From Escherichia coli O127:H6 str. E2348/69 (lineage in GTDB: Bacteria > Pseudomonadota > Gammaproteobacteria > Enterobacterales > Enterobacteriaceae), in the NCBI RefSeq assembly GCF_000026545.1, contig NC_011601.1: a stretch of DNA of 64,000 bases. One strand, written 5' to 3'. Shown here one piece after another: positions 19,001-25,000 of the stretch. Numbering within the stretch: the stretch's first letter is position 1; each line of letters opens with the position of its first letter. Position numbers: made by a program.

Positions 19001-22000
19001 GCCGACAGAGTGGAAACTACTGTGGGTTAAGCTGGAAGGAAAGCAGCTTCCGGCGCAAACACCGACCCTGAAATGGGCCTGTTTGAAACTGGCTAAACTG
19101 GGGCGATGGCATGACAGCAAACGCACAAGCAGCCCCGGTTGGGTAGTTATGTGGGATGGCTGGTTCAGACATCAGGATATGGCTGAGGGTTACCTGGTGA
19201 TGAAGTCTCTTGATCAGGAGATCTGATCAAGAGACAGGTCAAAGATGGGGGACAACGTCTGGTGCTGTATAACAGCACAGGCCTCACACTCTTGACGCCC
19301 GTGGAATATATTAGAGAACAAAAATTTCAATATGTGGTGGACGCATACAGAGGATTGACAGCATTCCCATACTAATTGTTAAGATTCAAATTGAAGTATA
19401 TCTATCTGTCATTTTGCAAATGATATGCGGTAGCTTTACCTAACTATCATGAACATTTCGAAAAATCATCCACAAAGCCCCGAAGAATAAAGCACTATCG
19501 CCCGATAAAGACCTGTAAGCTCAGTGGCATGGATACTATTGAGCTCAGAATGGCGAGCTGTACCGTTATTTCATTACCATGCTCGACGAACACAGCAACT
19601 ACGCTCAGGCTCTGGCCGTACTGTCGCTTAAAAGTGATATCATCAGGCATTTCTTCTGCTGTGTAGCCCAGTTGTTCCTTGTTGGTATCAACCAGATCAT
19701 CACTGATGATGGGCAAAGAGTTCTCGGGAAAATTCGACAAAACGCTACAGGAAGCCACCGTCGGGTTCGTATGGACTTATCTCTATACGCCGAAAATAAA
19801 TGCCATAAGTGAGCATTTTAACCGAACACTGAGGGAACAATTTATTGAGTTTAATGAAGAATTGCTCTTTGAATAGCTGAATATGTTCAATCTGAAACTG
19901 GCTGAGTATCTGGTACTGTACAACAGTAAAATTCTTCATAAATCGTTTAAACTACAAAAATCAGTAGAATATATTATTTCCACTGTCAGGCGGAAAATTT
20001 ATAGAAAGGATACAAACATATGCCAATAATAAACAAATCGGCATCAAATTATGTTGAATATATTTCAAAAAACAATCCCCCTTATTTATCAAAAAAGAGA
20101 GATGCCAGTATAAATCTAAATGGAAAGGTTAGTGATTGCAATGGGGAAATCATATGGTGTCGACATATAGCATCATATTGGAGTGAGTTTTTTTGTAGTA
20201 ATTCAGGAAAGATAGACTACGAAACATTTTCATCCCCTCAATTATTAAGCAAAGCTATTGTAATTCAGGAAAACAAGGGGACAAATAATATTAAGGGTGA
20301 TGTGTATTTTGTTGAAAATGAATCTTGGGGAAGCGTTATATATAACCTTTTTCTTCAACTTGAGAAAGAGAATAAATCTCACACATCATTAGAAGTTCAT
20401 TCTCCCGGGCATGCAATGGCTCTGGGCATTAAAATAAAAAACGACAAGGAAAATAAGTTTGTTATTAATTTCTATGATCCCAATCAGACCGCGACGCATA
20501 AACGAGTATTTTTTTGCACTAATAACATTTGTGATATAATAAACCTGACAGCATATGATTTTCTTAGTGAGCAATGTCTGAAATGTTATGGGCTAAAAGA
20601 AGACACACTGTCACTTTTTGTGGATAAAACAAAATCGAATGACAACAATAATGTGTTTATAAAAAAATTACCTGATAATATTCTCCAAGGTGTTGTTATT
20701 AATTTTGCTATGGGAGCAGGACTAAGAGAGATAATAAAAAAGGTATATAACGATACTCGATTTACAGATCTTACAAAATCTCAGATGAAAATCTTGTGTG
20801 AATCAAAAAATGTTAATAATGTTCCTGGGTTGCTTTTAGCTCTACAAAATGGACATGATAATGTAATTGATGAATATGGTACTTTAATTAAAAAGTCAAA
20901 TCTTAATAAAGAAGAATTAATACATATATTATCTGCAAGAACTTTGGATGGAACCATACCTGGTTTATATCAGGCCCTTCAAAATGGACATGCTCAAGCT
21001 ATTAAGAGTTATGGTAACTTAGTTCTGGATACTATTGATAAAAATATAGATTTAGAGTATTTGCTTTCAGCATTTAAATATGAGGCGCATAGCTCTAATA
21101 AATATACTCCTGGATTATTTTCTGCATTTAAAAATGGTCATGCAGACGCAATAAAAGCATATTGTGACGTACTTGGCAATAGTAATTTGACAAGAGGTGA
21201 GATAATCAGGATGCTTGAGGCGAGAAATTATGATGGTGCACCAGGATTACTTCTTGCGTATCAAAATGGAGATATTAATACGATTCAGTCTTTTTTTGAC
21301 TCACTAATAATGTTAGATATATCAAAGGATTTTATCGAAGAGTTATTGACTGCAAAACATTATGATTTTACGGGGTTATCATTAGCGATCAGTCATAGAC
21401 ATGATCATGTTGTCAAATTATACGGAAAGTTATTTAAAAAACTTGATACCAGTCCATATAAAATGTCAATTATCCTAGCATTAGCAATTGATTGCGAGAG
21501 AAATAATGCAAACATAATTATTGATAGTGAGTACAAGTCAAATAAGGCAGTAAAGGAATATGTAGAAATTTTAAAAGAATTCAATATATGCCCAGAAAAG
21601 GTAGCAGAATACCTAAGCGAGTTCAGCGGAAAACATTTCCTCGATGTATATAATTATTATTCCAATTGAAAAAAAACATAAAGTATCTATCACGGCACTC
21701 TCAGTTGAGTATCACAGGCACATGTATTTTATCCCCCTGAGTCTACAGACAACCAATATTACTTAAATAAGTGATAATCTTAATACTGTTTTTTAGAACA
21801 GATGATTGATATTTTTGGGCCGGAGAAACGCAGACAGGCTTTGTTGAATAAATCGAGCTTTTGCTGAGTTTAAGGATCAGATCACTCATTTTCCTGCAAA
21901 AGCTCATTGGGCGAAACAATCTGACTCAGAGAACCCGGATTAAACGTCTGGCCCGCAGAACCATCTATTTCTCACGCACTGTAGTACGTAATAAAAAAGT

Positions 22001-25000
22001 CATCGGTACTTTTATCAAAAAACATATATTCTATTAATTATTGCCATCACCTTTTTCTTATTGACAACGTTACTCTGCTGATTGTTAAAATCTAACCTGT
22101 ATTCAGGGTTACGATTCTATACAATAGAACAGGGAGGGGAAAGGATGTCATCGTTAATGAGACTTTTTGTTAATGTCAACAATGCTATGAATTTATTTTA
22201 GAAAAACAATTAAGCTGACGTAGTGTTCCGTCTAAATGACGGGGCGATATTAACATGATTAGAACAAGAGGAATTTTATGTTATCTTCATTAAATGTCCT
22301 TCAATCCAGCTTCAGAGGAAAGACAGCTTTATCAAATAGTACACTTCTCCAGAAAGTTTCTTTTGCTGGAAAAGAATATTCTCTGGAACCTATTGATGAA
22401 AGAACCCCTATTCTTTTTCAGTGGTTTGAAGCAAGGCCAGAGCGATACGAAAAAGGAGAAGTACCAATATTGAATACCAAAGAACATCCGTATTTGAGCA
22501 ATATTATAAATGCTGCAAAAATAGAAAATGAGCGTATAATCGGTGTGCTGGTAGATGGAAATTTTACTTATGAACAAAAAAAGGAATTTCTCAATCTTGA
22601 AAATGAACATCAAAATATAAAAATAATCTACCGAGCAGATGTGGATTTCAGCATGTATGATAAAAAACTATCTGATATTTACCTTGAAAATATCCATAAA
22701 CAAGAATCATACCCTGCCAGTGAGAGGGATAATTATCTGTTAGGCTTATTAAGAGAAGAGTTAAAAAATATCCCAGAAGGTAAGGACTCTTTGATTGAGT
22801 CATATGCAGAAAAAAGAGAACATACTTGGTTTGATTTTTTCAGGAATTTGGCCATATTGAAGGCTGGAAGTTTGTTTACAGAGACGGGAAAAACTGGATG
22901 CCATAACATATCGCCCTGTAGCGGATGTATATATCTTGATGCCGACATGATTATTACCGATAAATTAGGAGTCCTGTATGCTCCTGATGGTATCGCTGTG
23001 CATGTAGATTGTAATGATGAGATAAAAAGTCTTGAAAATGGTGCGATAGTTGTCAATCGTAGTAATCATCCAGCATTACTTGCAGGCCTCGATATTATGA
23101 AGAGTAAAGTTGACGCTCATCCATATTATGATGGTCTAGGAAAGGGTATCAAGCGGCATTTTAACTATTCATCGTTACACAATTATAATGCTTTTTGTGA
23201 TTTTATTGAATTTAAGCATGAAAATATTATACCGAATACCAGTATGTATACCAGCAGTTCATGGTAAGTCTTCCGGTTGTGGTTGAAAAATATCGTTCTT
23301 TAGGTATAGATTCAGATGATTAATCCTGTTACTAATACTCAGGGCGTGTCCCCTATAAATACTAAATATGCTGAACATGTGGTGAAAAATATTTACCCGA
23401 AAATTAAACATGATTACTTTAATGAATCACCCAATATATATGATAAGAAGTATATATCCGGTATAACCAGAGGAGTAGCTGAACTAAAACAGGAAGAATT
23501 TGTTAACGAGAAAGCCAGACGGTTTTCTTATATGAAGACTATGTATTCTGTATGTCCAGAAGCGTTTGAACCTATTTCCAGAAATGAAGCCAGTACACCG
23601 GAAGGAAGCTGGCTAACAGTTATATCCGGAAAACGCCCAATGGGGCAGTTTTCTGTAGATAGTTTATACAATCCTGATTTACATGCATTATGTGAGCTTC
23701 CGGACATTTGTTGTAAGATCTTCCCTAAAGAAAATAATGATTTTTTATACATAGTTGTTGTGTACAGAAATGACAGCCCTCTAGGAGAACAACGGGCAAA
23801 TAGATTTATAGAATTATATAATATAAAAAGAGATATCATGCAGGAATTAAATTATGAGTTACCAGAGTTAAAGGCAGTAAAATCTGAAATGATTATCGCA
23901 CGTGAAATGGGAGAAATCTTTAGCTACATGCCTGGGGAAATAGACAGTTATATGAAATACATAAATAATAAACTTTCTAAAATTGAGTAGAGAAGCTCAG
24001 CCACTTGTGTAGGGGGGCTAAAATTAATTCTATTTCATTATATGAGAACACCAATAAGAATAATAATATTTGATCACAACTGAAGATGCTTTTTACAATG
24101 AAGAATTATTGTTAAAAAACGCTTTGTTGAATCAACCGAACTGTTGCTGAGTTGCAGGATCACATCACGTATTTTCCTGAAAACGCAGGCTGCTTAGTAG
24201 CAAAGCAGAAGTTCAAAATCACCAACTAAATAGCTGCGCCGAATAGTAGATCAATGAAAGGGAACTCAGCCCGGATTGTGCGATCTGATCAATCGCCAAA
24301 AATCCCCCCCTAACCGGACTGAGCGATGCCGATCATAGCACCAATTCCCCGCGACGAATGACGCCTGATGCAAAAAGCAATCTATAAAACTCACGATAAA
24401 AATTATGCCCGCAGGCTGACCGCCATGCTGATGCTGCACCGGAGCGCTCGCGTCAGTGACGTTGCCAGAACGCTCTGCTGCGCCCGTTCCTCCGTCAGGC
24501 GCTGGATTAACTGGTTCACGCTGTCGAGTGTTGAAGGTCTGAAATCATTACCCGCAGGACGTTCCCGCCGCTGGCCGTTTGAGCATATCTGCACATTGTT
24601 TCGTGAACTGATAAAACACTCTCCCGGATATTTTGGCTATCAGCGTTCACGCTGGAGTACAGAACTGCTGGCAATAAAAATCAACGAGATAACCGAGTGC
24701 CAGTTACATGCCGGAACCGTTCGCCGCTGGTTGCCATTAGTCGGGCTTGTGTGGCGCAGGGCTGCGCCAACCCTGCGTACCCGTAACCCGCATAAAGCAG
24801 CAATTCACAAAGCACTGGACGAATGTAGTGCGGAGCATCCGGTCTTTTATGAAGATGAAGTGTATATCTATCTTAATCCCAAAACCGGTGCGGACTGGCA
24901 ACTTCGCAGACAGCAAAAACATGTGGTAACACCGGGGCAGAATGAAAAATACTATCTGGCTGGTGCTTTACATAGTGGAACGGGCAAAGTCAGCTATGTG

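Follow-up and report, generated by a model that had tools for sequence, protein, structure and literature searches.

The espL2-nleB-nleE locus

In EPEC E2348/69, the espL2-nleB-nleE locus is part of the pheV pathogenicity island (IE6), which is of the OI-122/SpLE3 type. Within the window analysed here (the whole stretch of DNA, 64 kb in length), a repeat search identified a 66-nt direct repeat with copies at 21838–21903 and 24121–24186 (83% identity). The first copy lies between espL2 and nleB, and the second belongs to a relic located between the nleBE module and efa1. These copies, and the insertion sequence (IS) pieces adjoining them, are as follows:

21837–21903, + strand: copy 1, the solo left end of an IS903-group element (IS coordinates 1 to ~66), identified by blastn, alignment and a perfect 18-bp terminal inverted repeat at 21837–21854
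21906–22051, + strand: 3′ remnant (last ~146 bp) of an IS1-family, IS1N-like element, identified by Pfam, tblastn and nucleotide alignment
24120–24228, + strand: copy 2, the left end of a second, more diverged IS903-group element (IS coordinates 1 to ~108), identified by blastn, tblastn and a 15/18 inverted repeat
24227–25367, + strand, both TA copies included: IS630-family IS, its transposase a pseudogene with an internal stop, identified by NF033545, inverted repeats and TA duplication
25368–25516, + strand: right end of an IS903-like relic (IS coordinates ~909–1057), identified by blastn, alignment and an inverted repeat at 25499–25516 (17/18)

RefSeq labels only the IS1 and IS630 parts of this arrangement; the IS903-type ends are without annotation because the coding remnant is too short.

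The repeat block carries an IS903 terminus

The original prediction of a 66-bp repeat with approximately 82% identity describes a real feature: by direct count, the two blocks agree at 55 of 66 positions (55/67 if the first base is counted), whereas the best ungapped 66-mer match in 20 shuffles of the 7-kb region reached only 36–40 of 66. The first copy had also been said to begin with the IS903 terminal repeat, and this is correct. The reference IS903B used here, a PGAP-annotated 'IS5-like element IS903B' of 1057 bp from a Klebsiella plasmid, has exactly GGCTTTGTTGAATAAATC at both termini, with the 9-bp duplication ATAAAAAAA on either side. The 18-mer GGCTTTGTTGAATAAATC occurs in the 64-kb window at 21837–21854 with no mismatch (18/18), at 24120–24137 with three mismatches (15/18) and, on the minus strand, at 25499–25516 with a single mismatch (17/18), giving three matches against 0.08 expected. 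More than 5000 plasmid records match the blocks and are annotated 'IS5-like element IS903B family transposase', and the remaining database matches are, without exception, IS903-type IS ends.

That the two blocks resemble one another by chance or through low complexity can be given virtually no credence: the region is AT-rich, and nothing further speaks for such a likeness, which is refuted by the shuffles, by the 18-mer count and by the separate match of each block to IS903B (E no worse than 2e-19).

Copy 1 is fused to an IS1N-like remnant

In blastn, IS903B positions 1–58 align with 21837–21894 at 93.1% identity (E = 2e-19), and a global alignment loses similarity past approximately position 66. 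Only a 12-residue stub of the IS903B transposase is recovered from copy 1 by tblastn (21869–21904). At approximately 21904, this solo end is fused to the IS1N-like remnant, comprising the last ~45 transposase codons and the right terminal repeat. Pfam DDE_Tnp_IS1 (PF03400) matches the remnant at profile positions 79–131 of 131 only (E = 9.6e-13), tblastn gives 74% amino acid identity to the C terminus of the IS1N transposase, and the IS1N nucleotide alignment starts at ~21906 and ends at 22051 with the terminus ...CATCACC. Both transposase homology and a terminal repeat therefore place 21906–22051 in the IS1 family, the 5′ ~80% of the element being gone. The 61-aa 'IS1 family transposase' that RefSeq places at 21852–22037 is a chimeric open reading frame spanning the IS903/IS1 junction.

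Copy 2, the right end, and a nested IS630-family element

Copy 2 aligns with IS903B positions 2–108 over 24121–24227 (85.0% over 107 nt; E = 1e-29, blastn), has thousands of plasmid matches at 85%–86%, and holds codons 1–25 of the annotated IS903B transposase open reading frame (24152–24226, tblastn). Since copy 1 is 93% and copy 2 is 85% identical to IS903B, with 83% identity between the two, these divergences indicate that the copies are the ends of two different IS903-group elements.

The right end corresponds to IS903B positions 909–1056 at 25366–25515 (72.5% over 153 aligned columns; E = 2e-14, blastn) and takes part in inverted repeats I6 and I14 of the repeat search; its terminal base is changed, being A and not G. 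A decayed C-terminal stub of the transposase, with a frameshift and a stop, was found by tblastn at 25369–25456 (fragments DGQVAE and VRVLNKMTRARMS*YVRI). This third IS903-type piece did not feature in the original prediction, nor did the origin of the two copies in two different elements.

Copy 2 had been described as lying upstream of an IS630-type gene. It does precede that gene, but the IS630-family element sits within the IS903-like relic and is accompanied by a TA duplication. This element has the transposase (NCBIfam NF033545 transpos_IS630, E = 1.7e-57; RefSeq label 'IS630 family transposase, internal stop'), the terminal inverted repeats (I2: 20 nt, 100% identical, 24226–24245 and 25349–25368) and the TA target duplication (24227–24228 and 25366–25367, within a CTAG target; junction sequences AAATCACCAACTAAATAGCT and AGCTATTTAGGATGGTCAGG) of its family, and ISEc33-family elements match ~24226–25371 at approximately 83%. 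It inserted later, into CTAG at the junction of copy 2 and the right end; before this insertion, the two pieces were contiguous, a unit of 258 bp bearing both terminal repeats. Identity to IS903B is nevertheless 85% for the left piece and 72.5% for the right one, and on this divergence the two might come from two elements and not from one.

A full-length close relative of the second element was not found in the E. coli and plasmid collections, where the best match was 76%. Searches with the right end reached at most 76% in plasmids and, in E. coli, gave nothing between the island copies and partial relics at ~84%. One of these, L009 (84%), was considered as a parent of the second element and rejected, as it is itself a relic truncated by ISEc16.

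The full IS903 transposase gene (a DDE enzyme of ~307–322 aa) was not found by tblastn, which returned stubs only; the blocks are thus relics and not elements. The original prediction had neither copy joined to an IS903 transposase, which is true in that no gene survives, but N- and C-terminal transposase stubs remain. It had further regarded the blocks as possible scars of an excised or degraded IS5-family element, of which degradation is borne out by the IS903B matches, whereas excision is not, the relics being truncated or internally deleted. A 9-bp target duplication was absent from all three pairings of the ends (flanks ACGCAGACA, GTTAAAAAA and GGACTTATC), so that the IS903-like insertion events are deduced and not demonstrated.

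Conservation across genomes and the IE2 paralogue

In about 560–600 complete E. coli genomes, the relic arrangement is preserved at 99% or more. For the espL2-nleB spacer, identity reaches 99% or more in 594 records (604 genomes, with a median of one place per genome), and the nleE-efa1 spacer has full coverage in 560 genomes. Across 5426 complete genomes, the context of the segment is always the same, again with a median of one place per genome, and no 'empty site' allele free of either relic came to light. Scanning genome contigs for NleB returned only divergent paralogues (57%–73%), with no Citrobacter rodentium or E. albertii island orthologue among the matches.

A paralogous island in the same genome, IE2, matches IE6 at 96%–97% from 18343 to 24164. 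This homology ends inside copy 2, at IS coordinate ~45, and one IE2/IE6 breakpoint is in this way pinned within an IS903-like end. Past the breakpoint, IE2 contains unrelated DNA and a highly divergent lifA-like gene, with neither the IS630 element nor the IS903-like right end.

Proposed regulation of nleB and nleE

The blocks had alternatively been proposed as a conserved regulatory module kept upstream of effector genes, for instance as an nleB-nleE promoter or operator that originated in the left end of IS903. Promoters can reside in IS ends, and the left end of intact IS903 sits upstream of the transposase gene. Copy 1 faces nleB, whose start codon lies ~440 bp downstream of the first base of the block and ~375 bp downstream of its last, and about 600 genomes preserve the block at 99% or more; however, this conservation equals that of the whole island and is therefore uninformative about the block itself. 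Copy 2, moreover, is not 5′ of an effector but downstream of nleE, and it is split from the right end by the IS630 element. A consensus scan of the + strand between 21600 and 22300 yielded no sigma-70-like site.

Nor does the block recur as a module shared by several effectors independently of IS sequence. The 64-kb window contains no additional copy, other nle genes are not preceded by one, and in E. coli the block occurs once per island. It had been suggested that the same block be sought upstream of nle genes elsewhere, and it is absent 5′ of nleB in seven divergent loci from other Escherichia and Salmonella (L004–L007 and L012–L014), in which no nucleotide homology extends beyond 7 nt upstream of the start codon. 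The nle regulatory motif NRIR has been reported for nleB2 and related genes, and not for the present locus (PMC7142665). A search of the literature found no mapped nleB or nleE transcription start, and no relevant link of IS903 with nleB or OI-122, the co-occurrences being irrelevant. The regulatory reading is accordingly rejected as highly improbable, on the lack of extra copies in the window, of a + strand promoter site and of the block in the comparative loci.

Possible mobilisation in trans

Enterobacterial plasmids commonly carry IS903B, and the ends could in principle still be functional cis sites, such that the 3.68-kb segment 21837–25516 (nleB-nleE), or a mini-element at 24120–25516, would be transposable by an IS903-family transposase acting in trans. 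The outer repeats are correctly inverted, are mutually identical at 17 of 17 overlapping bases (I6), and retain 18/18 (left) and 17/18 (right) of the IS903B terminus. If this were true, nleB-nleE would constitute a 3.7-kb pseudo-transposon, and a plasmid-borne IS903B transposase could spread two immune-suppressing effectors. Such mobility is, however, very unlikely: neither candidate unit is surrounded by a 9-bp duplication, the terminal base of the right end has changed, the segment keeps its single invariant context across the complete genomes, and the sole duplicate examined (IE2) shares a stretch that is not bounded by these repeats.

Origin of the relics and comparison with known systems

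The blocks are very probably functionless remains of two distinct ISs from the IS903 group (IS5 family), situated at the joints of the espL2-nleB-nleE module of the pheV island, an interpretation that draws on sequence comparison. Under this interpretation, full-length IS903-like elements would once have inserted between gene modules, and later deletions would have taken their interiors together with one flank. Copy 1 may have arisen through a single deletion extending from within the IS903-like element into an adjoining IS1-like element, and the copy 2 relic through an internal deletion of ~800 bp. With IS903, adjacent deletions occur frequently and account for missing target duplications (PMC11708052). 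IS insertions and deletions, with recombination at ISs, may have helped to assemble and reshuffle the island modules, and the present-day blocks would be inert, only marking old module joints.

OI-122 is composed of modules (espL2/sen-nleB-nleE and efa1) with putative transposases between them (PMC5852577), and pheV islands are IS-flanked mosaics of modules (PMC11537424). The IS debris described here belongs to the same island and presents the same modular picture as that at the module boundaries of OI-122, SpLE3 and pheV islands; it is ordinary in kind, and supports the accepted module-by-module assembly of OI-122 via IS activity. Its significance is small, in that the annotation is tidied for a virulence island that has been studied extensively and two unannotated IS903-group relics are named, which yields no new mechanism and no evidence for regulation of nleB or nleE by the blocks.

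IS903/IS903B is a 1057-bp element with 18-bp terminal inverted repeats and a 9-bp duplication. The relics share its terminal 18-mer (18/18, 15/18 and 17/18), its sub-terminal sequence (93%, 85% and 72.5%) and transposase stubs in the expected position and orientation; terminal repeat and internal homology are thus those of the IS903 group. Unlike IS903B, they have neither a transposase gene nor a target duplication; copy 1 consists of one 66-bp end alone, and the second element lacks IS coordinates ~109–908 and has diverged too far to be IS903B itself.

The relic that preceded the IS630 insertion (24120–24228 plus 25368–25516) resembles a MITE in its small size (258 bp), its two terminal repeats and its lack of a gene. 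In contrast to a MITE, which is found in many copies with a target duplication, it is present within the island as a single copy per genome and has no such duplication, and hence gives no sign of MITE-like propagation; its database matches comprise 563 records with at least 95% identity, all others having at most 90%.

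Layout of the island

The island adjoins a tRNA-Phe gene (window 10615-10690; RefSeq annotation). pheV is the locus of IE6/OI-122-type islands (PMC11537424); the island here is IE6 of E2348/69, and its O157:H7 counterpart is OI-122/SpLE3 (PMC2813277, PMC11537424). Window 21000-26500 matches the E2348/69 (EPEC O127:H6) chromosome at 100% identity.

Island features in order after the tRNA-Phe gene (RefSeq; window positions)
Integrase
Many IS fragments (IS66, IS4, IS481)
Ail/Lom (pagC-like) gene
20020-21669, espL2
21852-22037, 61-aa 'IS1 family transposase'
22278-23267, nleB
23316-23990, nleE
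24368-25345, IS630-family pseudogene
25864-35535, efa1/lifA
As far as ~39950, additional IS fragments

IS4-family and IS481-family transposase pseudogenes (17957-20029) directly precede espL2, the start of which (20020) is overlapped by the annotated IS481 fragment 19460-20029. A frameshifted TssE (type VI secretion) pseudogene (17140-17605), another stray island fragment, stands alone beside the Ail/Lom gene. At the right border (~39950), yghX is truncated, and the adjacent gpr (L-glyceraldehyde 3-phosphate reductase), a core gene outside the island, is interrupted by an intact IS3-family element, IS1397 (40443-42915).

The repeated blocks as IS903-type ends

The original prediction claimed a 66-bp repeat in two copies, and a repeat search indeed returned a 66-nt direct repeat (21838-21903 versus 24121-24186) at 83% identity; direct counting gave 55/66, and the surrounding 7 kb, shuffled twenty times, gave at most 40/66. 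The 18-mer identified in that prediction with the IS903 terminal repeat is carried exactly at both termini of the reference IS903B, a 1057-bp element from a Klebsiella plasmid (PGAP label 'IS5-like element IS903B family transposase') with a 9-bp duplication on either side. Within the window it occurs at 21837-21854 without mismatch (copy 1, between espL2 and nleB), at 24120-24137 with three mismatches (copy 2, downstream of nleE), and on the opposite strand at 25499-25516 with one (a right end that had previously gone unnoticed): three matches, where 0.08 would be expected. BLASTN of the reference element against the window likewise gave three significant matches.

BLASTN matches of reference IS903B in the window
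IS903B 1-58, window 21837-21894, 93.1% identity, E=2e-19
IS903B 2-108, window 24121-24227, 85.0% identity, E=1e-29
IS903B 909-1056, window 25366-25515, 72.5% identity, E=2e-14

Copy 2 and the right-end piece each match more than 5000 records in the plasmid collection, these being annotated IS903B/IS5-family transposase genes, matched at the gene ends. At the protein level the transposase is reduced to stubs: its residues 1-25 lie at 24152-24226, a twelve-residue piece at 21869-21904, and, at 25369-25456, a C-terminal portion interrupted by a frameshift and a stop. Over its first 58 nt copy 1 is 93% identical to IS903B, closer than its 83% to copy 2; the blocks are thus remnants of two separate IS903-group elements rather than one motif present twice. 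Reading the blocks as IS scars was correct but incomplete, as there are three ends, apparently from two parents, in a nest that also includes remnants of IS1 and IS630.

The IS1 junction in copy 1

In copy 1, similarity to IS903B is lost beyond ~position 66, and from ~21906 the sequence aligns to the 3′ end of IS1N, reaching an IS1-type terminus (...CATCACC) at 22051. Only the last third of the Pfam IS1 transposase profile is matched (positions 79-131 of 131, E=9.6e-13), with the remnant peptide 74% identical to the IS1N C terminus. The 61-aa RefSeq CDS (WP_085449538.1), which carries no pseudogene flag, has its first ~17 codons within the IS903-type end, the remainder encoding the C-terminal part of an IS1N-like transposase; it is therefore a chimeric ORF. 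Its counterpart in IE2, the paralogous island of the same genome, is annotated as an incomplete pseudogene. Each of the two elements is broken at the junction and retains its outer terminus; the simplest history would be one deletion from within the IS903-like element into the adjacent IS1-like element.

A full IS1N also lies immediately beside ospD3, which is annotated as a type III effector gene of Shigella, on an S. dysenteriae plasmid (NZ_CP026785.1 89449-91377), paralleling the IS1N-like remnant just downstream of espL2. We take ospD3 to be a ShET2/EspL2-family homologue, and the resemblance may be coincidence or reflect a common ancestral neighbourhood.

The IS630 insertion and the right end

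Between copy 2 and the right end lies an IS630-family element (24226-25368) with perfect 20-nt inverted repeats (24226-24245 and 25349-25368), ~83% identical to ISEc33, the closest named element. Its transposase is recognisable (NF033545, E=1.7e-57) and contains an internal stop; despite the perfect termini and intact duplication, the transposase is dead, and ~560 genomes carry this same copy. The junctions read ...CACCAAC-TA-[IS]-TA-GGATGG..., in which TA is duplicated intact within CTAG, the customary target of the IS630 family. Because the duplication is clean, 24120-24228 and 25368-25516 must have formed one uninterrupted stretch until the insertion. The pre-insertion unit, 258 bp long, had a left end (IS coordinates 1 to ~108) and a right end (~909-1057), each with its terminal repeat, and is an internally deleted IS903-type relic.

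A propagating MITE was considered and rejected: the right piece is found at ≥95% identity only in the island (563 records), with matches elsewhere at ≤90%, mostly IS903B at ~73%. A solitary IS903-group right-end relic, 84% identical to window 25403-25515, lies in the E. coli FXCREC035 chromosome (2501-2616 of the comparison locus), where ISEc16 has cut it short; ompC is on one side and a gene for an MFS transporter on the other. Diverged IS903-group scars therefore exist elsewhere in E. coli.

Regulation, distribution, and mobility

The original prediction alternatively saw in the blocks a conserved regulatory element upstream of effector genes. Scanning genome contigs with NleB gave divergent loci at 57-73% aa identity, four in all (Escherichia sp., E. 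albertii, and two Salmonella subspecies), and a 74% NleB homologue led to three further contigs; the IS903-type end is absent from all seven. In the closest, nucleotide homology is restricted to 22271-23975, beginning 7 nt 5′ of the nleB start codon and running through the nleE end. A simple promoter scan found no + strand promoter in 21600-22300, and copy 2 sits 3′ of nleE and is broken by another IS. Reports of NRIR, the known nle regulatory motif, concern nleB2 and further nle genes and do not include this locus (PMC7142665), and no paper on nleB promoter mapping was found in the literature. The regulatory reading is thus not supported.

Of 5426 complete E. coli genomes, 604 have the espL2-nleB spacer, copy 1 included (median one place per genome; ≥99% identity in 594 records), with O145 and O103 strains among the matches, and the nleE-efa1 spacer (copy 2, IS630 element, and right end) is completely covered in 560 genomes, including O157:H7, O111, and EPEC. 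Given this spread, the scars are old, fixed passengers of the island, conserved no more highly than the surrounding sequence. The outer repeats (21837, 25516), near-perfect and correctly inverted around nleB-nleE, might still serve an IS903 transposase provided in trans; however, no pairing of the three ends shows a 9-bp target duplication and no second location exists in the 5426 genomes, making this highly improbable. Absent duplications are commonly attributed to adjacent deletions, frequent for IS903, or to IS-IS recombination (PMC11708052). By far the best explanation, held with high confidence, is that IS903-group elements contributed to building the island through insertions and deletions, and that the blocks are the inert debris they left behind.

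Joints between island modules

In IE2, espL is a pseudogene and nleE carries a deletion; the island also has nleB and a lifA-like gene (PMC2813277). Its locus (NZ_LT827011.1 1115001-1165000, about 22996-28607, minus strand) aligns to the window at 96-97% across 18343-24164, copy 1 and the IS1 remnant included, with two deletions (window ~21517-21573 and ~23462-23620), the latter being the known internal nleE2 deletion. On the left, homology begins at 18343, within the IS4 pseudogene. On the other side, homology ends within copy 2, ~45 bp into the IS903-type end, beyond which there is unrelated AT-rich DNA and, 31 bp on, a highly divergent lifA-like gene annotated as 'TcdA/TcdB catalytic glycosyltransferase domain-containing protein'; IE2 lacks both the IS630 element and the right-end piece. 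One effector module has therefore been joined to two different large-toxin genes. The relics would thus mark module joints, with this joint located in an IS903-like end.

OI-122 is described as modular, module 2 comprising sen/espL2-nleB-nleE and module 3 efa1, with putative transposases between (PMC5852577). The relics at the joints of IE6 agree with this published module picture (PMC5852577), and also with the general picture of pheV islands (PMC11537424).
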